Source of the DNA: Devosia sp.
GTDB lineage: Bacteria > Pseudomonadota > Alphaproteobacteria > Rhizobiales > Devosiaceae
Direction of reading: 5' to 3'
NCBI GenBank assembly: GCA_039918675.1
Contig: JBDSHC010000088.1
Span: 3,790 to 67,789, forward strand
Length of the DNA: 64,000 nt
Shown: positions 53,484 to 64,000 of the stretch, piece after piece
Layout: every line of letters starts with the position of its first letter
How positions within the stretch are numbered: the first letter of the stretch is position 1
Notes under the pieces: model-generated
What the model saw: the letters and a program-made list of their open reading frames with translations, nothing else
What the model was told of the DNA's origin: nothing
Databases searched by the model: none
Position numbers and translations under genes: made by a program

Positions 53484-53651
53484 ATTTCAGCTAATTCCTG
53501 CAGATAACTGCAACTCAGGTGAGAACAGCGGGTCACCTTAGATAGTTCTGTTCATGAAGCATTCAGGCGCTGCACGTCAGTTGCAGCGGCATTCTGCCGG
53601 TGCCAATGTCCCGGCACGCTCGGCGCGGAGGGCGCGCCTCTGGAGGCTTTC

Positions 53652-54209
53652 ATGTTTGGCTGGATCATTCTCGGCATTATCGTTGCCGCCGTCGCCTATG
53701 GCGTCTTCGCCTACAACAATCTCGTGCGGCAGCGGCAGCTCAGCCAGGAAGGCTGGTCCGGCATCGATGTGCAGCTCAAGCGCCGCGCCGACCTCATCCC
53801 CAATCTGCTCGAATCCGTGAAGGGCTACATGGCCCATGAGCGCGATACTCTCGAAGCCGTCACCAAGGCGCGCACTGCCGCGCAGATGGCGCAGAACGGC
53901 ACGCCGGAGCAGCGCGCCGCTGCTGAAGGTCAACTCTCCACCGCACTCGGCAAGCTCTTCGCCGTCGCCGAGGCCTATCCGGATCTCAAGGCCAGCCAGA
54001 ACTTCATGCAGTTCCAGGGCGAACTGTCGAACACCGAAAACGAGATCCAGCTGTCGCGCCGCTACTACAATGGCACGGCCCGCGATCTGAACACGGCGGT
54101 CGAGTCCTTCCCCTCCAACATTCTCGCCAACTTCTTCAAGTTCGAGAAGGTCCAGTACTTCGAACTCGAGAACCCGGCCGACCGCGCCGTGCCGACAGTG
54201 AAGTTCTAG
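53652..54209 (+). CDS. lemA: LemA family protein
   Basis: YNNLV, WSGIDVQLKRRADLIPNL, AEAYPDLKA, RRYYN and FPSN. Confidence 0.96.
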   Translation: MFGWIILGIIVAAVAYGVFAYNNLVRQRQLSQEGWSGIDVQLKRRADLIPNLLESVKGYMAHERDTLEAVTKARTAAQMAQNGTPEQRAAAEGQLSTALGKLFAVAEAYPDLKASQNFMQFQGELSNTENEIQLSRRYYNGTARDLNTAVESFPSNILANFFKFEKVQYFELENPADRAVPTVKF

Positions 54210-54234
54210 GCAACGGACGCCACTCCACCACGAT

Positions 54235-54341
54235 GTCAGTCCCGCGCAGGCGGGTATCCAGTTCGAACCAACCACAGGGTCGACAATGCTTCACCTCATC
54301 CGGCAACATCTGTCCTGGATTCCCGCCTGCGCGGGAATGAC
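54235..54341. repeat. Palindromic intergenic repeat, family A (complete)
   Basis: 27-bp arms GTCAGTCCCGCGCAGGCGGGTATCCAG / CTGGATTCCCGCCTGCGCGGGAATGAC (2 mismatches), 53-bp spacer; each arm is itself a hairpin. Confidence 0.9.
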
Positions 54342-56262
54342 AAAGCGAACCGTGGCGGCGCTCGTGCTGCTGGTCTTCGCGGCGACTGCGCTTCCCGCGC
54401 TCGCCGAAGAGCAGATCCTTTCCTACATCACCAACACGACGCTCCGCATCGATGGCTCGGTCGACGTGGTCGAGACCATCGAGGTCAATTCCGAGGGTGA
54501 CCAGATCCGTCACGGTATCTACCGCGACATCCCCCTCACCATGATCAACGAAGACAAGTCGCGGCTTCGTTCGGACCTGCGCGTGCTTGAGGTAAAGCGC
54601 AACGGCGCATCCGAGCCTTACAGCGTCGACAATATCGGCGGCGGCTTCAAGCGCATCAAGATCGGCGATGGCGACGTCTTCCTCGATTACACCACGCACA
54701 TCTACACCATCCACTATACCATGACCCGCATGGGTCGCTTTTTTGACGACCATGACGAGCTCTACTGGAACGCCACGGGCAGCTACTGGAACTTCCCGAT
54801 CCTCAAGGCGACGGCGACGCTCAATTTGCCGCCCGGCGCCGTCGTCGGCGACACGGTGGGCTATGAAGGCGCACCTGGCATCGGCACCCCATCGGCGACG
54901 GTGGAGCGGAAATCCGACACGTCCGTCGCCTTCCGCTCGACCCGCATACTGCGGCCCGGTGAGGGTCTGTCGGTCGCGGTCAAGTTCCAGAAGGGCATTC
55001 TGGTCCAGCCGCAGGGCCTCACTGCCATCGGCTATTGGTTGTCGGATCATCGTGAGCTGGTGTTTCCCGGTGTCGCGGTGATCCTTGTTCTGCTCTACAA
55101 TTTCTTTGCATGGAACGCCGTGGGCCGCGACCCGCACCGCGGCACGATCATTCCGCTCTTTCATCCGCCGCAGGATATGTCGCCGGCGCTGGCGCACTAT
55201 GTCTCGGGCATGGGCTTCAAGAAGAGCGGCTGGACCGCCTTCATTGCCTCGATCTTCGATCTGGGCGTCAAAGGCCTCGTCCAGATCGACAAGGTCGGCA
55301 GCAAGACCAACATCAACATTACCAATGCCAGCCCCACCGGCACCTTGCCAGCGGGCGAAAGCGCCCTCTACAGCTTCATCAAATCGAAGGGGCAAGTGTC
55401 GATCGACAAGACCGACGGCCCGCAGCTCAACGCCAAGCGCGGCGAACTGGTCTCGGCCATCGAGCGCGAGAACCGCGAGATCTATTTCAAGAACAATGTG
55501 CTTTACACGCTGGGTGGCGCTGCCCTGGCGGCGCTCATGCTGCTGGTCATGATCTGGCTCGATGTGCTCGACCCGGTGTTCCTCATCGTCGCCGCCGTAA
55601 CGGCAGTGATCGTTGGTGTGATCATCGGCACCGTGTTCAGCGGCGGCAAGGGCGGCAGCATTGTCGGCAAGCTGTTCGGCGGCGTGTGGCTGGTGATCAT
55701 CGCCATCAACATCTTCGGCTCGGGCATCAGCGCCATCTCAGGCATCCGCCTCGATACCGGTTTCGTTGCTGCCGCCTCGATCCTCATCATCGAGATCGTC
55801 TTCGCCATCCTGATGCGCGCCCCCACCATCCAGGGCCGCAAGCTGATGGACCAGATCGAGGGCTTCAAGATGTACCTCGATACCGCCGAGAAGAACCGCC
55901 TCAACTATGTCGACAAGGGCGAGCCGCAAATGACCATCAAGCGTTTCGAGTCGATCCTGCCGTTCGCCATCGCCCTCGGGGTTGAGAAGCCGTGGTCCGA
56001 TCGCTTCTCCGCCGACCTCGCGCGCAACGCCGTGGCCGACGCCACCGGCGGTACTTACTCGCCCTATTGGTACAGCGGCGGCGACTGGTCGACTGCCGGC
56101 TCCTCAGGTGATTTCTCGAAGTCGGTGTCCTCAATGTCGACCGGCATGGCCGCCGCGATGATCGCCGCGCAACCGTCCAGTTCGTCGGGCTCGGGCTTCT
56201 CGAGCGGCGGTGGCGGAGGGGGTGGCGGTGGAGGCGGCGGCGGGGGTGGTGGCGGCTGGTAG
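54337..56262 (+). CDS. DUF2207 membrane protein
   Basis: Signal peptide, RHGIYRDIP, DELYWNATG, LPFAIALGVEKPW and a Gly-rich tail ending in W; usual partner of lemA. Confidence 0.93.
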   Translation: MTKRTVAALVLLVFAATALPALAEEQILSYITNTTLRIDGSVDVVETIEVNSEGDQIRHGIYRDIPLTMINEDKSRLRSDLRVLEVKRNGASEPYSVDNIGGGFKRIKIGDGDVFLDYTTHIYTIHYTMTRMGRFFDDHDELYWNATGSYWNFPILKATATLNLPPGAVVGDTVGYEGAPGIGTPSATVERKSDTSVAFRSTRILRPGEGLSVAVKFQKGILVQPQGLTAIGYWLSDHRELVFPGVAVILVLLYNFFAWNAVGRDPHRGTIIPLFHPPQDMSPALAHYVSGMGFKKSGWTAFIASIFDLGVKGLVQIDKVGSKTNINITNASPTGTLPAGESALYSFIKSKGQVSIDKTDGPQLNAKRGELVSAIERENREIYFKNNVLYTLGGAALAALMLLVMIWLDVLDPVFLIVAAVTAVIVGVIIGTVFSGGKGGSIVGKLFGGVWLVIIAINIFGSGISAISGIRLDTGFVAAASILIIEIVFAILMRAPTIQGRKLMDQIEGFKMYLDTAEKNRLNYVDKGEPQMTIKRFESILPFAIALGVEKPWSDRFSADLARNAVADATGGTYSPYWYSGGDWSTAGSSGDFSKSVSSMSTGMAAAMIAAQPSSSSGSGFSSGGGGGGGGGGGGGGGGGW

Positions 56263-56457: not shown

Positions 56458-58482
56458 ATGCCTGAACTGCTGCTCGAACTGTTCTCCGAAGAAATCCCCG
56501 CGCGCTTTCAGCGCCGCGCTGCCGAGGACCTCAAAAAGGCCGTCACCAATGCGCTGGTCGAGGCGGGGCTCGTCTATGAGGGCGCCAAGGCCTTCGTGAC
56601 ACCGCGGCGTCTCGCGCTGACCGTCGCGGGCATCCCGATGCGGTCGCCGGATCTGCGTGAAGAAAAGAAGGGTCCGCGCGTTGGAGCGCCGCAGCAGGCG
56701 ATTGATGGCTTCCTGAAGTCGGCCGGGCTGACCTCGATCGATCAGGCCAAGATCGTTTCGGACCCCAAGAAGGGCGATTCCTACGTCGCCTATATCGACA
56801 AGAAGGGCGACGAGGCCCCGAAGCTGCTCGCCGATATTCTGCCGCGCGTTGTCGGCGCCTTTCCCTGGGCCAAATCGATGCAATGGGGCCATGGCGGGCT
56901 GACCTGGGTGCGCCCGATCCGCGCCGTCACCGCCACCTTTGGTGCGGACAATGATGAGCCCGTGGTGATTCCGTTTTTGACCGGAAACGTGCCGTCGGGG
57001 CAGACCACTTACGGCCACCGCTTCCTCGCGCCCGCAGCTATCAAGGTGCGGCGCTTCGACGATTATGTGCGGGCGCTGGAGAAGGCCAAGGTCGTTCTCG
57101 ACATCGATCGCCGCAAGGAGATCATCAAGGCCGACGCCGCCAATCTGGCTTTTGCACAGGGGCTGACCGTCATCGATGATGAGGGACTGCTCGAAGAAGT
57201 CGCCGGCCTCGTCGAATGGCCGGTCGTCATGATGGGCTCCTTCGACCCGAGCTTCCTCAAGGTGCCTGAGGAGGTGATCATCGCCACCATCCGCGCCAAC
57301 CAGAAATGCTTCTGTCTGCGCGATGCATCGGGCAAGTTGTCGAACCATTTCCTGCTGACCGCAAACAATGTCGCAAGCGACGGCGGCGATCTGATTGTCG
57401 CTGGCAATGAGCGCGTGATCCGTGCCCGGCTGAGCGATGCTAAGTTCTTCTACGAGACCGATCTCAAGCTGCCGCTCGAGCATGGCCTGCCCAAGCTCGA
57501 AGAGTCGGTGTTCCACGCCAAGCTCGGAACGCAGTTCCAGCGCGTGCAGCGGATCGTCGCGCTTGCCAAGGACATCGCGCCAATGGTCGGCGCCAATGTC
57601 GCCGACGTAGAACGCGCTGCGATGCTGGCAAAGGCCGATCTGCCAACCGGCATGGTCGGCGAGTTCCCCGAGCTGCAGGGCATCATGGGCCGCTATTATG
57701 CGCTTGCCCAGGGCGAGAAGCGCGAAGTGGCCAACGCCGTCGCCGATCACTACAAGCCGCTCGGCCCGACCGACCGCGTTCCTGGTGAGCCCGTTGCGAT
57801 TGCCGTGGCGCTGGCCGACAAGCTCGATTTGCTCACCGGCTTCTGGGCGATCGACGAAAAGCCTACGGGCTCGCGTGATCCGTTCGCGCTGCGGCGGGCC
57901 GCGCTGGGTGTGATCCGGATTGTAACGGACAATAATCTGACCTTCCCGCTCAAGGTCGAAGCGGACCTGCTCGCTTTCTTCCACGACCGCTTGAAGGTTA
58001 GCCTTCGCGAGGCGGGGGCTCGTCACGATCTGGTCGATGCCGTCATCACGACGCAGAGCAGCGACATTCTCGAAATCACGCGGCGCGTCGAGGCGCTGTC
58101 GGTGCTGCTGTCGTCGCCGGATGGCCAGAATCTATTGGCAGGCTACAAGCGCGCGGCCAACATCCTTGCGGCTGAGGAGAAGAAGGACGGCAAGACGTAC
58201 GCGGCGCAGGTCGATCCGCAATTGCTGACGCTCCCCGGTGAGCAAGCGCTGGCCAGTGCGCTCGCCTCCGCCGACGCAAGCGCTGCCGCTAAAGTCAAAG
58301 CCAACGACTACAAGGGCGCCATCGCTGCGTTGGCGACGCTCCGTGCACCGGTTGATACCTTCTTCGAAGCCGTCCTCGTCAACGATGCAGATTCCGCAAT
58401 CCGGGCCAATCGGCTTCATCTGCTCGCTGCATTGCGCAATACGATGCAGCTTGTGGCGGATTTCTCGAAGGTGGCGGGCTAG
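56458..58482 (+). CDS. glyS: Glycine-tRNA ligase beta subunit
   Basis: [40 protein letters not shown]-like VLVNDAD and NRL. Confidence 0.99.
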
Positions 58483-58499
58483 CGGCTAAAAACTGCATC

Positions 58500-58629
58500 C
58501 CTTCTCCCCTTGAGGGAGGAGGTGGATCGGCCGCAGGCCGAGACGGATGAGGGGTTCCCTCGGACATCGCGGATACGGCACGAACCCCTCATCCGCCCTT
58601 CGGGCACCTTCTCCCTCAAGGGGAGAAGG
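58500..58629. repeat. Palindromic intergenic repeat, family C (complete, 130 bp)
   Basis: Perfect 18-bp outer inverted repeat CCTTCTCCCCTTGAGGGA/TCCCTCAAGGGGAGAAGG and perfect 14-bp inner inverted repeat CGGATGAGGGGTTC/GAACCCCTCATCCG. Confidence 0.9.
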
Positions 58630-58641
58630 AAGTGCAGAGCA

Positions 58642-58968
58642 CTAGAGCGGCGGCAGTCTGCAGGTGACCTTGCCGCCATCTGTGTCGAACACGAACAGCG
58701 TTTCACCATCCAACTCGCCGAAGCCGCCATGCCAGTGCTGCTCGGCCAATGGCCCGGTCAGCGCCTCGACACTATCGCCTGCTGAGGCGATTTGACCCTG
58801 TGAGCTGACGCCGTTGACGTCCCATTGGTAGTCGCCGGCTACGAGCAGCGAGAGCACGCCGAGCTTGTCCCCGGCCCCCGACGCGCAATCATAGATGCCC
58901 GGCGGCGGAAACTGCGCGAGGGCAGGGGTGGCGACGAGGATGAGCGGGAGAATGAAGGGATGTCTCAT
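58642..58968 (-). CDS. Small exported hypothetical protein (108 aa)
   Basis: Signal peptide ending PALA-Q; two Cys near the ends of the mature part; beta-rich pattern. Confidence 0.75.
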   Translation of the reverse strand: MRHPFILPLILVATPALAQFPPPGIYDCASGAGDKLGVLSLLVAGDYQWDVNGVSSQGQIASAGDSVEALTGPLAEQHWHGGFGELDGETLFVFDTDGGKVTCRLPPL

Positions 58969-59026
58969 AGGGCAATCTTCGGCGCCTGGACGATCGCGGG
59001 CAAATCAACTCTCGGTGCTCGGGGCC

Positions 59027-59075
59027 GCCCCTTCCGCCAGCTTCGCTGACACCTTCCCCCTCGAACGGGAGAAGG
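59027..59075. repeat. Family C repeat, right-half remnant
   Basis: CCCCTTCCGCCAGCTTCGCTGACACCTTCCCCCTCGAACGGGAGAAGG aligns by eye to 58585-58629. Confidence 0.7.
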
Positions 59076-59086
59076 AAGAAGGTGCG

Positions 59087-59560
59087 TCAAACCGGCGGCA
59101 CCAGGGTGTGGTCACGCTTCTTCGGCTTGAACGGCGCCATGCCTTCATTCGCGAGGGCATCGGCGCGTTCGTTCATCTCATCGCCATTGTGCCCTTTGAC
59201 CCAGTGCCAGTTGATGGTGTGGCGCTGCACCGCGGCATCGAGGGCCTGCCACAGCTCGACATTCTTCACCGGCTTCTTGGCGGCCGTCTTCCAGCCGTTT
59301 TTCTTCCAGCCGTGAATCCAGCCGGTGAGCCCGTCCTTGACGTAGCTGCTGTCGGTGTGAAGCTCGACGGTGCAAGGCCGCTTCAACGCGTTAAGCGCTT
59401 CGATCGCCGCCGTCAGCTCCATCTGGTTGTTCGTGGTCAGCTGTGCGCCACCCTTCAGCTCTTTGACCGTCGCGCCATATTGCAGCACGGCGCCCCAGCC
59501 ACCGGGGCCGGGATTGCCCGAGCAGGCGCCATCGGTGTGGATCGTCACGCTGTCCGTCAC
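59087..59560 (-). CDS. rnhA: Ribonuclease HI
   Basis: [31 protein letters not shown] and WVKGH...NERADALA. Confidence 0.99.
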
Positions 59561-60075
59561 GCTGGCCGTCGCATGACGTGGTACTGGCAGATCATCCCGT
59601 CCTCATTTGCCTTCACTTCGGTGGGGATCATGCCGATACGCTGCAATACCTTGATCGACGCCGTATTGCGCAGGTCCGCAGACCCGATGAACAGATCGAT
59701 GTCCGTCTCCCGGAACAGCCAGTCGCGCTGGCCGGACGCGGCCTCGAACGCATAGCCATTGCCCCAGAACTCGGGATAGAGCGAATAGCCCAGTTCCGGC
59801 TCGCCGGTCGGCTCGAGCCCGTAACCGCAGCGGCCCACCAGCACACCATCGGATTTGCGACGGACCCGCATCTTACCGAGCCGGCGGGTCTCGTAAAGGT
59901 GGATCCATTCATCGAGCGCCGCTTCCATTTCGGCCATGGACCAGGGCTGGCCGTGGGCGCTGAGGTAGCGGGCGACGATGGGATCGCCATGGAGGCGAAC
60001 GAGGTCGGCAATCTGGTCATGGCGCCAACCGGAGAGCACCAGCCGTTCGGTCTCGATCAGATCGAGATCGCTCAT
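59557..60075 (-). CDS. GNAT acetyltransferase (RimJ/RimL-like)
   Basis: [23 protein letters not shown] and [12 protein letters not shown]. Confidence 0.9.
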
Positions 60076-61037
60076 GCGGCAGGCGAGGCGGTGGGGCGCA
60101 ATTCGCGCGGCAAATTGAATACGATGGTCTCGCGGCCCGCGCCATGGGCGCTCACTTCGATGTCGAAGCGTTGCGCGAAAGCCTCGATCACTTCATCGAC
60201 CAGCGCCTCTGGTGCCGATGCGCCAGCGGTGATGCCGAGCGTCGAGATCCCCTCGAACTGCGTCCAGTCGATGCGGTCGGCCCGCTCGACCAGCATCGCC
60301 CGCTCGCAGCCGTTGCGCTGGGCAACTTCGACGAGCCGCACGGAGTTCGAGCTCTCGGGCGCGCCGACGACGATCATGGCATCAACCGAGGGCGCGACCT
60401 TCTTGACCGCTTCCTGGCGATTGGTGGTCGCGTAGCAGATGTCTTCCTTGTGCGGCAGGGCGATGGCCGGGAAGCGCCGGCGCAAGGTCTCGACGATGGC
60501 GCTGGTGTCGTCGACGCTGAGCGTCGTCTGCGTCACGAAGGCCAGGTTTTGCGGGTCGCGCGGCGTGAAGGCTTCGGCATCGGCGACGGTCTCGATCAGC
60601 GAGATTGCGCCTTCCGGCAATTGCCCCATCGTGCCGATGACTTCGACATGCCCGGCATGGCCGATCAGGACGATCTCGCGGCCTTCATTGAAATGCCGGT
60701 TGGCCTCGATATGGACCTTGCTGACGAGCGGGCAGGTGGCATCGAGGAAGAACATGTTGCGGGCTTTGGCGTCCGCCGGCACGGCCTTGGGCACACCATG
60801 GGCGGAAAACACCACCGGCGCTTCACTGGGCGGAATCTCATCCAATTCTTCGACGAACACAGCACCTTTCCGGCGCAGGCCCTCGACGACGTATTTGTTA
60901 TGGACGATCGCATGACGCACATAGACGGGCGCGCCGTACTTCTCGAGCGCCAGCTCGACGATCTGGATCGCGCGGTCGACGCCGGCGCAAAATCCGCGCG
61001 GCGCGCACAATGTGATCTCGAGTTTGGGCTTATCCAT
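60072..61037 (-). CDS. ispH: 4-hydroxy-3-methylbut-2-enyl diphosphate reductase
   Basis: [37 protein letters not shown] and TAGASAPE. Confidence 0.99.
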
Positions 61038-61117
61038 GCATCTGCAGATGCTTTCTGGTCGCACTCAAGTCAAGGGCCGTTGCGGCAGGCGGGCCGCGCG
61101 GGCAGTATAGCTGCCCA

Positions 61118-63385
61118 GTGCTTTCAAAGGAATCTCCGGTGAGCCTCGCTCTCGAAATGTTTGCAGTTGCGCCGTCCGGCGGCAACGCAAACCTGTCCGA
61201 GGCGCAGCGCCATCTGCTGGTCGGCAAGGCCCGCTGGATCCGTGCCGTGTGGGAAGCGGGCCTCCCGACCATCCCCACGATCGTGATCAGCCGCGCCGCC
61301 TGGGACGCCCTCCAGGCCGAGCGGCGTCAGCGCGAAAACCGTCTACGGGCCCATTGGGTGGCCACATTGTTCCGCCTCGTGGGCCGCGATGCGCGGCCCC
61401 CGGCACTCACCGTCAGGACCGCCAGTGACACTGTGGTGGCCGGCCGCATGCCAGCGCGTGTGGGGCTGTCGGCCCCCTCAAACGAGGGCGAGGCAGTCGA
61501 TCCACAGCGCCCGCTCGGCCGTGCCATTGCCGATGCCTTCGAATCCTATGGCGGCGACGCGGCCGATGCCATCGTGGTCATCCAAGCGACGGCCCTCGGT
61601 GAGCCGATGCAATTTCTCTCGCGCGACGCGCAGAGTGGCGTGCTCGGGCCGGCTGCCATGGCCGGGGGCGATATTCCGCTTGCGACGGAGGCAGTCGAGC
61701 TTAGCGAAGTGCTCGATCGCGTCGTTGGCCGCCATATGGCGATCACCGCGGCGATGGAGCGGGGCGCGCTGAAGTTCCTCTCGGCACGGCCGTTTCAAGC
61801 AACCGCCGCTGCCGAGCTCGAGGCCGCGACCGATCGGGTCGGCCGCGGCACATGGAGCGAGGAGCAGGCCGTCGCGAGCGTTAGTCCAGACCGGTTGCAG
61901 GCGCTGCTGCATCCGAGCCTGCGCGCTGGGCACGCGGCTGAGCCTATAGCCACCGGGCTTGGCGTGTCGCCTGGGGCGGCGAGCGGCTACATCGTCTTCA
62001 CCGCCGAGGACGCTGCTCGCTACAAGGCGCGTGGCCGGCACTGCATTCTCGTGGTCAACGAGACCGGCCCCGCCGACATCGATGGCATGAAGGCCGCGAC
62101 CGGCATCCTCACCGCGCGCGGGGGCATGACCAGCCATGCCGGCGTCATCGCGCGCATTACCGGCAAGCCCTGCGTTGCGGGTGTGCGCAATCTGTCGGTC
62201 GATGCGTCCGACATGTCGTGCCGCATCGGCGAGCTTGTGCTGCATGCCGGCGACCGCATCAGCATCGATGGCAGCGACGGCTCGGTCTATTCCGGCGTGC
62301 TACCGCTCAGCCGTCCACGCATCGGCGGCGCGCTGGGCGAGCTGCTCGGCTGGTCCAATGCGACGCGGAAGATCGAGGTGAGGGCCAATGCCGAGACGGT
62401 CGAGGCCGCGACGACCGCGCTCAGCTTTGGGGCCGAGGGCATCGGCCTGGCGCGGTCGGAGCATATGTTCTTTTCGCGCGACCGGATGGTGGCGTTGCGC
62501 CGGCTGATCCTCTCCGAGGACGAGGCCGACCGCAAAGCGGCGCTTAACGGCCTCGTCGATTTCCAGACCGGCGATTATTCGTCGATCTTTTCGGCCATGG
62601 CCGGCCGGCCCGTCACCGTGCGTCTGTTCGATCCGCCGCTGCATGAGTTCCTGCCGCGGACAGAGGAGGACATCGAGGAGACGGCGAAGTCGCTCGGACT
62701 CGAACTGCGCGCGTTGAAAATGCGGCTTGACCGGATCTCCGAGATCAATCCGATGCTGGGTCATCGGGGAGTACGTCTTGCCGTGACCTATCCCGAGATT
62801 CTCGAGATGCAGGTGCAGGCGCTGCTTGCCGGCGTGCGTGCGGCGATGGAGAAGGGCGGCGAGCCGGTGCGGCTCGAGATAATGGTGCCGTTCGTGTCGA
62901 CGGCGCATGAGGTGCTGTGGGTTCGGCAGCGCGTGATGGAACTCGTCGACGCGGCCAATCTGCCGCCCGCCGCGCGCCAGAGCTTCGCTTTCGGCACGAT
63001 GATCGAACTGCCGCGCGCCGCGCTGCGTGCTGCCGATATTGCGAAGCATGTCGACTTCTTCTCGTTCGGCACCAACGATCTGACACAGACCACCTATGGC
63101 ATCAGCCGCGACGATGCGCCGGCCTTCCTCGCCGCCTATCAGCGCAAGGGGCTGTTCGAGATCGATCCGTTCGTTTCGATCGACCAGAAGGGTGTCGGCG
63201 AACTGATCGCCATCGCCATCGAGCGCGGACGGGCCAGTAACCCCGCGTTGAAGATCGGCATCTGTGGTGAGCACGCGGGCGATCCCGCGTCGCTGGCATT
63301 CTTCGCGACGCTCGATGTCGATTATGTCAGCTGCTCGCCCTATCGCGTGCCGGTGGCCCGTCTGGCTCTGGCTCAGGCGCAATAG
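61118..63385 (+). CDS. Pyruvate phosphate dikinase-like protein with eroded nucleotide-binding domain
   Basis: Intact GGMTSHA, GIGLARSEHMF, RLFDPPLHEFLP, TMIELPRAA, FSFGTNDLTQ and GICGEH; N-terminal domain short and divergent; start uncertain (61118, 61139 or 61157). Confidence 0.9.
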   Translation: MLSKESPVSLALEMFAVAPSGGNANLSEAQRHLLVGKARWIRAVWEAGLPTIPTIVISRAAWDALQAERRQRENRLRAHWVATLFRLVGRDARPPALTVRTASDTVVAGRMPARVGLSAPSNEGEAVDPQRPLGRAIADAFESYGGDAADAIVVIQATALGEPMQFLSRDAQSGVLGPAAMAGGDIPLATEAVELSEVLDRVVGRHMAITAAMERGALKFLSARPFQATAAAELEAATDRVGRGTWSEEQAVASVSPDRLQALLHPSLRAGHAAEPIATGLGVSPGAASGYIVFTAEDAARYKARGRHCILVVNETGPADIDGMKAATGILTARGGMTSHAGVIARITGKPCVAGVRNLSVDASDMSCRIGELVLHAGDRISIDGSDGSVYSGVLPLSRPRIGGALGELLGWSNATRKIEVRANAETVEAATTALSFGAEGIGLARSEHMFFSRDRMVALRRLILSEDEADRKAALNGLVDFQTGDYSSIFSAMAGRPVTVRLFDPPLHEFLPRTEEDIEETAKSLGLELRALKMRLDRISEINPMLGHRGVRLAVTYPEILEMQVQALLAGVRAAMEKGGEPVRLEIMVPFVSTAHEVLWVRQRVMELVDAANLPPAARQSFAFGTMIELPRAALRAADIAKHVDFFSFGTNDLTQTTYGISRDDAPAFLAAYQRKGLFEIDPFVSIDQKGVGELIAIAIERGRASNPALKIGICGEHAGDPASLAFFATLDVDYVSCSPYRVPVARLALAQAQ

Positions 63386-63549
63386 GACCGGCTGTCCGGG
63401 CCGAAATTAACCATCGGCGATCAACCACTTCACGTCGGCCGGGAGGTTTACCTCACGATAACCCTAATCCCGCATGATCCGGATTGTCGGCATTTGAGCA
63501 ACATTGCTGGCGCGTGTTTTGTTGAGTTGCGTGAGTAGTACCGCGTTTG

Positions 63550-64000
63550 ATGGGCCTCGTCGGACCAATCAATTTCTGGGCCCGTCCCCGGCATAGCCTT
63601 GCAGGCGTCATCGCCTCATTGGTGCTATCGCTGGTGGCTTACTCGCTGCTGACCGGCGGCGCGTTGAGCCCCTCGCACGGCATTACCTCTGCCTCCGCTT
63701 CCGAAAGCTCTGCGACGCTGACCCGCAATGGCGATGACCTCATCATCACCGGCTCGGTGGACAACCTCTTCAAGACCGGATTCTTCATCGGCCCCAATCG
63801 TGCCGAGAAGGTGAACCGCGCGCGCCTGACGCCCGATGGCGTGTCGGTCTCGGGCGGCTTCGATGCCATCCGCATCCGCATCGCCGAAATGCGTGCACCC
63901 AAGATTCCGGGCGGCGCTGCCATGCCACCCGTCTTGCCGACCATCGAAGTGGCGAGTATCGATCCGGCGACCAGCGACGCACTTGGCGCCATCGACCAGA
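63550..64000 (+). CDS. 5' part of an exported protein, probably a SleB-family cell-wall hydrolase (runs off the window)
   Basis: Open frame from ATG 63550: MGLVGPINFWARPRHSLAGVIASLVLSLVAYSLL...GPNRAEKVNRA. Hydrolase call rests on ppdK-adjacent synteny only; catalytic domain not visible. Confidence 0.55.
   Translation, partial: MGLVGPINFWARPRHSLAGVIASLVLSLVAYSLLTGGALSPSHGITSASASESSATLTRNGDDLIITGSVDNLFKTGFFIGPNRAEKVNRARLTPDGVSVSGGFDAIRIRIAEMRAPKIPGGAAMPPVLPTIEVASIDPATSDALGAIDQ

Follow-up and report, generated by a model that had tools for sequence, protein, structure and literature searches.

Pyruvate, phosphate dikinase (PPDK; EC 2.7.9.1; TIGR01828; structures 1dik and 1kbl) is the textbook three-domain swivelling enzyme. 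In rifampin phosphotransferase (RPH), HpeHI and phenylphosphate synthase a swivelling histidine likewise shuttles phosphate between two substrate modules (PMC4844700; PMC12167813), with a functional ATP-grasp domain kept and the phosphoenolpyruvate (PEP) barrel replaced. VadK (Rv1127c) of Mycobacterium tuberculosis is a PPDK-derived histidine kinase with a regulatory role (PMC13400623), which joins ATP-grasp and His domains without a PEP domain and autophosphorylates from ATP. Here, we describe the reverse arrangement in a stretch of 64,000 nucleotides from Devosia sp. (Alphaproteobacteria, Devosiaceae; assembly GCA_039918675.1, contig JBDSHC010000088.1, positions 3,790 to 67,789 of the forward strand), hereafter the window, in which a PPDK-like gene encodes a protein, hereafter the short form, that combines intact His and PEP domains with an apparently dead ATP-grasp domain. 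With moderate confidence, and on the strength of sequence comparison, we propose that this gene is the Devosiaceae ppdK ortholog, that its ATP-grasp domain was gutted in the family ancestor, and that it has been kept as a PEP-charged phospho-His sensor or phosphodonor that has lost the ATP cycle. By analogy, its closest published counterpart is VadK, which would be its mirror image: both are PPDK descendants minus one substrate domain, with the swivel His kept and a clade-wide non-PPDK role, whereas the phosphate donor would be PEP in Devosiaceae.

Pfam assigned to the window protein a PEP-utilizers domain (PF00391, residues 308 to 388) and a PEP-utilizers_C domain (PF02896, residues 407 to 754), and no PPDK_N domain (PF01326) at E<=0.1. 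Against the PPDK equivalog model TIGR01828 the protein reached 693.3 bits, under the cut-off of 843.45 and through residues 195 to 755 on model positions 305 to 864 only; the copies of all 107 single-copy family genomes likewise fell below the cut-off. Alignment with Clostridium symbiosum PPDK (1dik) was confined to residues 195 to 754 on 308 to 869, in a protein about 140 residues shorter than PPDK. The Enzyme I model of the phosphotransferase system (PTS; TIGR01417) matched the PEP domain only (141.6 bits, cut-off 341.7), and the VadK-type model NF004531, which represents ATP-grasp and His domains without a PEP domain, gave 111.3 bits where 456 are required. Judged by these profiles, the short form lies outside the PPDK, Enzyme I and VadK equivalog families and would be Enzyme I-like in principle. 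As in Enzyme I and EI-Ntr (PtsI, PtsP), a PEP barrel would phosphorylate a swivelling TSH histidine in a protein with a non-nucleotide N-terminal module; unlike Enzyme I, the short form lacks the HPr-binding helical subdomain, its N-terminus is an ATP-grasp remnant, and the Devosia genome has a PtsP and NPr of its own.

Residue conservation was assessed in an alignment that combined 111 homologs with representative sequences from 20 more genera and with canonical PPDKs of sister families, with C. symbiosum numbering transferred to the short form via a canonical relative. The equivalents of the catalytic His455 (H340 in the window protein) and of the PEP/pyruvate-barrel residues R561, R617, E745, N768, D769 and C831 were each present in 111 of 111 sequences, bearing out the initial annotation, made from the window's letters alone, in its view that the PEP/phospho-His half is intact; the motifs that it had quoted there are all in place (TSH at 338, RSEHMF at 446, RLFDPP at 502, MIELP at 628, GTNDL at 651, GICGEH at 714), as are those from the N-terminal domain (VGKA at 35, TVRTA at 98, VAGRMPA at 107, AITAA at 208, LSAR at 221). 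In this latter domain the largest loss is a deletion of about 78 residues (about residues 120 to 198), which removes essentially the whole of nucleotide-binding subdomain NBD2 (aa 112 to 196 in PPDK; PMC5371819), R135 included. A 6-residue deletion (250 to 255) takes out T253 and G254, and an 11-residue deletion (265 to 275) takes out E271. The GEDVVAG loop is replaced by LGPAxxxG (LGPAAMAG in the window), followed by a deletion of about 21 residues, such that the earlier remark that QGEDVV is absent holds for the stretches on either side, where 11 and about 21 residues are deleted, and not for the loop itself, which was exchanged. Among the 111 sequences the positions of D321 (C/A/S/T/V) and of the Mg ligand E323 (T/L/M/V/A) are hypervariable, and that of Q335 is a conserved Ser; the 1dik alignment pairs D321, E323 and Q335 with A208, T210 and S222. 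Destruction of the nucleotide/Mg site, as previously claimed, is thus supported in silico.

The same cannot be said of the further claim that phosphate chemistry was lost, which we do not regard as demonstrated because the old phosphate site keeps its basic residues nearly unchanged. The phosphate-contacting equivalents of K22, R92 and G101 (Table 1) and of R337 (R224; 110 of 111) are retained in 106 to 111 of the 111 sequences, and those of Q240 and R259 each in all 111. We presume phosphate roles for R92 and R337 from C. symbiosum mutagenesis work. K22 contacts the ATP gamma-phosphate (PMC4844700), and PPDK mutant structures with K22A (1jde) and R337A (2dik) were among the structural matches. 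These basic residues are the main unexplained feature of the short form.

Structure prediction agreed with a retained fold. A full-length AlphaFold2 (AF2) model from a mixed alignment was confident (pLDDT 86, pTM 0.80), its N-terminal part included, and shares the overall fold of PPDK (TMq 0.85). It superposed well on 2r82, 5jvj_A and 1vbg (TMq 0.84 to 0.86, root-mean-square deviation 4.5 to 5.2 Å) and poorly on 1kbl and 1dik (12.8 Å); in the former conformers the central domain faces the PEP barrel and in the latter the nucleotide domain (PMC5371819), and the model sets the His domain on the PEP barrel. The mutations of 2r82, at R219, S262 and E271, introduce charged residues, and the central domain then adjoins the PEP barrel (PMC5371819). 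In the short form these three positions are deleted or unconserved. We take them to be the interface between nucleotide and central domains. When only Devosiaceae sequences were used to model the N-terminal 258 residues with AF2 (pLDDT 91), the best Foldseek match was the PPDK nucleotide-binding domain (TMq 0.68, E=1.6e-10, 15 to 17% identity), followed by the folds of rifampin phosphotransferase, D-Ala-D-Ala ligase and GAR synthetase, and profile-profile comparison (hhalign) of short-form with canonical N-termini gave E=3.8e-5 over the first ~100 columns. The N-terminal domain is thus predicted to be a well-folded ATP-grasp core without nucleotide/Mg apparatus, in which the alpha/beta core is present and the acidic and amide Mg-nucleotide ligands are replaced. 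The initial annotation had suggested comparing a structural model with PPDK; model and alignments together retain the ATP-grasp core and not the full set of nucleotide-binding residues.

Searches with the N-terminal 193 aa of the window protein found the short form in one copy each in 150 of 151 Devosiaceae genomes, in 127 of 127 high-quality genomes and in 23 of 24 genera. Elsewhere in the order (about 290 genomes) there was a single real match, the rest being at chance level. This match, a short form of 58% identity at a contig edge in a genome of another GTDB family (G210:C294:669-1235; f51), could be a sister lineage, a misplaced metagenome-assembled genome or contamination. Queried with the N-terminal 200 aa as a single sequence, phmmer recovered only 36 relatives among 1.84 billion representative proteins, none of them a canonical PPDK. 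Sister families carry PPDK genes in 16 of 16 sampled genomes, matching from residue ~160 to 275 onwards only (mostly ~190 to 210), and their open frames measure about 895 to 970 aa wherever the contig is complete. That the short N-terminus might be an assembly error, a concern raised at the outset, or any other truncation artefact, is ruled out by the same architecture in 150 of 151 family genomes.

Both synteny and phylogeny point to descent from ppdK. Canonical families and the window's contig share the order glyS, ppdK, SleB-type hydrolase, HD-domain, ygfZ-like and dihydroorotase-like genes, by which the window gene is identified as the positional ortholog of alphaproteobacterial ppdK. The proximity to glyS and a cell-wall hydrolase, offered by the initial annotation as a functional clue, is therefore ancestral ppdK synteny, and a functional link to either gene is ruled out by canonical ppdK having the same neighbors. 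A maximum-likelihood tree built on the C-terminal 500 residues groups the short forms in one clade (support 100/100), sister to the canonical clade and separated from it by about 1.7 substitutions per site versus a median terminal branch of 0.21; synteny and monophyly rule out a horizontal origin. Two metagenome-only proteins branch deeply within the short clade: P0151 (812 aa) is without K22, R92 and G101 equivalents and keeps H455 and the PEP-site residues, and P0140 (a 328-aa fragment) is without K22 and G101 equivalents and keeps R92. Divergence is concentrated in the N domain, where canonical PPDKs share 69% identity across families (65 to 66% in His and PEP domains), Devosiaceae and canonical proteins share 23% (about 50%), and Devosiaceae among themselves share 51% (68 to 72%); the window protein and PPDK are 48 to 50% identical over the His and PEP domains.

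Pairwise Nei-Gojobori ratios of nonsynonymous to synonymous substitution (dN/dS) over 11 Devosia genes were 0.27 in the N remnant, 0.21 in the former Mg-site strands, 0.12 in the linker, 0.18 in the His domain and 0.12 in the PEP domain, values that are approximate given a dS of ~0.8 to 1.3, near saturation. Constraint on the N remnant is relaxed about twofold, with the remnant still clearly under purifying selection. That the gene is a decaying relic without function is to us scarcely credible: the N domain does evolve faster than the remainder and PPDK is dispensable given pyk and pckA, but the open reading frame (ORF) is intact in 150 of 151 genomes and 23 genera, dN/dS is 0.12 to 0.27, and the catalytic residues are invariant.

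The cognate regulator has disappeared from the family. PDRP, the PPDK/PEPS regulatory kinase-phosphatase (PF03618), occurs in 14 of 16 sister-family genomes and was found in 0 of 25 Devosia and 0 of 21 genomes of 17 other Devosiaceae genera, and so the initial annotation's suggestion to look for a PPDK regulatory protein ended in a family-wide loss (0 of 46). T338 (62129-62131), the counterpart of the PDRP target T453, gives way to Asn in 4 of 21 Devosiaceae genera and to Ser in some Devosia, a variability that fits this loss. Enzyme I also carries a TSH threonine. The threonine had been marked as regulatory, and it holds no information on regulation.

The PEP-pyruvate node is covered without PPDK because pyk (pyruvate kinase) and pckA (ATP-dependent PEP carboxykinase) are present. 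As to the suggested search for a second ppdK or ppsA, a ppsA-like gene of about 800 aa is found in about half of Devosia genomes, and 4 of 111 family genomes (three in genus g35, one in g32) have, at another locus and beside the short form, an extra full-length PPDK (loci L055, G059:C27; L057, G082:C11; L056, G070:C10). These copies score 1214 to 1273 bits against TIGR01828, above the cut-off, are divergent with long branches, and group with the canonical rather than the short clade; none of the four genomes has PDRP. They were probably acquired horizontally. Because these genomes carry a separate canonical PPDK beside it, the short form would not be supplying PPDK activity. This bears on the view that the short form is a working PPDK with a minimized, highly diverged nucleotide-binding domain, which we judge very unlikely. 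The retained ATP-grasp core, the conserved K22, R92, G101, Q240 and R337 equivalents and the position at the ppdK locus speak for it, and loss of one Mg ligand is no proof of inactivity, because RPH in which the Mg-coordinating Glu297 is changed to Ala is still active (PMC4844700). The case for inactivity would instead lie in no single residue but in the combined loss of both Mg ligands, D321, NBD2 (R135 included), the T253/G254 loop, the E271 segment and, across the family, PDRP. Further points against a working PPDK are that the D321 and E323 positions are unconstrained, that PF01326 is blind to the N domain, and that a canonical PPDK was acquired or kept besides in four genomes.

The most economical account, and the likeliest role, is that of the PEP-charged phospho-His protein, largely as read in the initial annotation, for which the following course may be envisaged. 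In the Devosiaceae ancestor the nucleotide half would have been disabled and the cognate regulator lost, while the His-PEP machine was retained under selection. The C-terminal barrel would still bind PEP/pyruvate and charge His340 of the swivelling domain (E + PEP <-> E-His~P + pyruvate). Because the N-terminal domain presumably no longer binds Mg-ATP/AMP, the dikinase cycle (ATP + Pi + pyruvate <-> AMP + PPi + PEP) would be blocked. The phosphorylation state of His340 could then report the PEP/pyruvate ratio, or the phosphoryl group could pass to an acceptor, with the ATP-grasp remnant and its conserved basic K37, R100, R169 and R224 serving as a scaffold or as a docking or acceptor site. In work by Xu et al. 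of 1995, deletion mutants of C. symbiosum PPDK reportedly run the two partial reactions separately; a His-PEP module should thus remain able to swap phosphate with PEP/pyruvate. What we observe is the architecture, the pattern of residues, the distribution, the selection and the accompanying loss of the regulator; from these we infer that the protein autophosphorylates from PEP, no longer uses ATP and has taken on a new role with an acceptor or in regulation. Options for His~P include regulation via protein contacts (as in VadK), hand-over to an acceptor bound at the remnant, or hydrolysis. Several points weigh against this proposal: the near-invariant K22, R92, G101, Q240 and R337 equivalents make ligand chemistry at the old site possible, the Glu297Ala mutant of RPH remains active, the dN/dS values are approximate, and the analysis turned up neither a candidate acceptor nor a partner gene, the neighbors being ancestral synteny.

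The want of an evident partner gene is also what one would expect if the protein were a partnerless PEP consumer, in which His340~P is hydrolyzed (a PEP phosphatase) or only PEP/pyruvate exchange occurs and the N remnant is purely structural. Intact PEP and His domains and a remnant that is the least constrained part of the protein would agree with this, but a futile hydrolase is ill-suited to strict single-copy conservation in 150 of 151 genomes with pyruvate kinase, and the basic cluster in the remnant is invariant; we regard it as unlikely. The basic cluster lends itself to another thought, namely that the old Pi/PPi site accepts the phosphoryl group (PEP + Pi <-> pyruvate + PPi) or that some other anionic small molecule is phosphorylated there. 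K37, R100, R169, R224 and the G109 loop hardly vary, although the elements on the metal and adenine sides have disappeared, and there is modular precedent in the swivel-His serving different acceptor domains in RPH (PMC4844700) and HpeHI (PMC12167813). Yet the Mg ligands are gone from this site too, the His-docking residues R219, S262 and E271, altered in 2r82, have been deleted or are not conserved, and the AF2 model has the His domain on the PEP barrel. We know of no such reaction, and rate this reading as quite unlikely. In a wider form, for which we see a small chance, the dead ATP-grasp domain would be recycled as an acceptor site, His340~P being passed to a ligand on K37/R100/R169/R224 and the G109 loop that could be orthophosphate (making the protein a PEP:Pi phosphotransferase that forms PPi), an anionic metabolite or a docking protein. 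If true, the protein would have a PEP-dependent phosphotransferase activity of a new kind, reciprocal to that of VadK.

NPr and PtsP are present in Devosia as in its relatives, and the nitrogen PTS is therefore complete without the short form; NPr was found by hidden Markov model search, the gene having been missed by tblastn with E. coli HPr, and its presence in Devosia and relatives alike is not discriminating. Outside the window, the same genome (G000) carries a cluster on the reverse strand (C119:35310-42251). It encodes FAD- and molybdopterin-type hydroxylase subunits, a GntR regulator and a cyclase-like protein, together with a 613-aa protein whose C-terminus is a swivel phospho-His domain (PF00391) and a 273-aa PPDK_N ATP-grasp protein that stands alone and has every nucleotide motif. 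By analogy with phenylphosphate synthase and HpeHI (PMC12167813), the cluster resembles a two-component dikinase for small molecules set in a catabolic operon. Supply of an ATP-grasp domain in trans by its PPDK_N (C119 38212-39033) was ruled out, the cluster being a sporadic split-kinase catabolic one; relatives of its swivel-His gene occur in 2 of 24 other Devosia genomes.

The features of the locus are collected in Table 1. The predicted ORF on the forward strand was confirmed as annotated, with a GTG start and no internal stops. The true start is probably the later GTG at 61139, which would yield 748 aa, because a Shine-Dalgarno sequence lies 7 nt upstream of it, homologs start with MSLAxEMFA, and a database cluster member is 748 aa long. 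Between glyS and the PPDK-like gene (window 58483-61117), Devosiaceae carry rnhA, a GNAT acetyltransferase gene (5 of 8 genomes) and ispH on the opposite strand; none of the three was matched between glyS and ppdK in canonical relatives. Upstream of glyS, a 658-aa membrane protein (window 54286-56262, +) ends in ~17 glycines and a Trp. The peptide WIPACAG(M/L)T is encoded both by this ORF and by that on the other side (53577-54275, -); such sharing hints at a palindromic repeat element between the two.

Table 1. Features of the PPDK-like gene and its surroundings, in window coordinates
Feature	Position	Strand	Basis or remark
PPDK-derived gene (short form)	61118..63385	+	uninterrupted ORF from GTG 61118, 755 aa; stop codon 63383-63385
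Shine-Dalgarno AAGGAA (61127-61132) and probable start GTG (61139-61141)	61127..61141	+	
Degenerate ATP-grasp (nucleotide-binding) domain remnant, residues ~8-232	61139..61813	+	alignments, hhalign, AF2, Foldseek
K37 codon, equivalent of C. symbiosum K22, retained	61226..61228	+	K in 110/111
R100 codon, equivalent of R92, retained	61415..61417	+	R in 111/111
G109 codon, equivalent of G101, retained	61442-61444	+	G in 106/111
A208-I209-T210, positions of D321 and Mg ligand E323, both lost	61739..61747	+	
S222-A223-R224, Mg ligand Q335 changed to conserved Ser; R337 retained	61781..61789	+	
Swivelling phospho-histidine domain, residues 271-395	61928..62302	+	PF00391 E=5.8e-20
T338-S339-H340	62129-62137	+	H340 invariant
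PEP/pyruvate-binding TIM-barrel domain, residues 396-755	62303..63382	+	PF02896 E=1.4e-75
Barrel catalytic residues R446, R502, E630, N653, D654, C716	within 62303..63382	+	invariant
glyS (glycyl-tRNA synthetase beta subunit), ancestral upstream neighbor of ppdK	56458..58482	+	
rnhA	59087-59560	-	between glyS and PPDK-like gene
GNAT acetyltransferase	59557-60075	-	between glyS and PPDK-like gene
ispH/lytB	60072-61064	-	between glyS and PPDK-like gene
5' part of SleB-type cell-wall hydrolase gene (324 aa, runs past the window)	63547..64000	+	PF07486 E=1.5e-26

Our literature search on Devosia PPDK and 'putative PEP-binding protein' found no paper on the short form. A whole family has long kept a PPDK ortholog that lacks one active site and retains the other, which implies that the PEP/His half is selectable alone and makes the short form a natural construct for the PEP partial reaction and for domain swivelling. 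Together with VadK, in which the opposite half was kept, it suggests that PPDK repeatedly yields phospho-histidine regulators. For metabolic reconstructions of Devosia, PPDK activity should not be assumed from annotation, because homologs of the short form are annotated as 'pyruvate, phosphate dikinase' or 'putative PEP-binding protein'.

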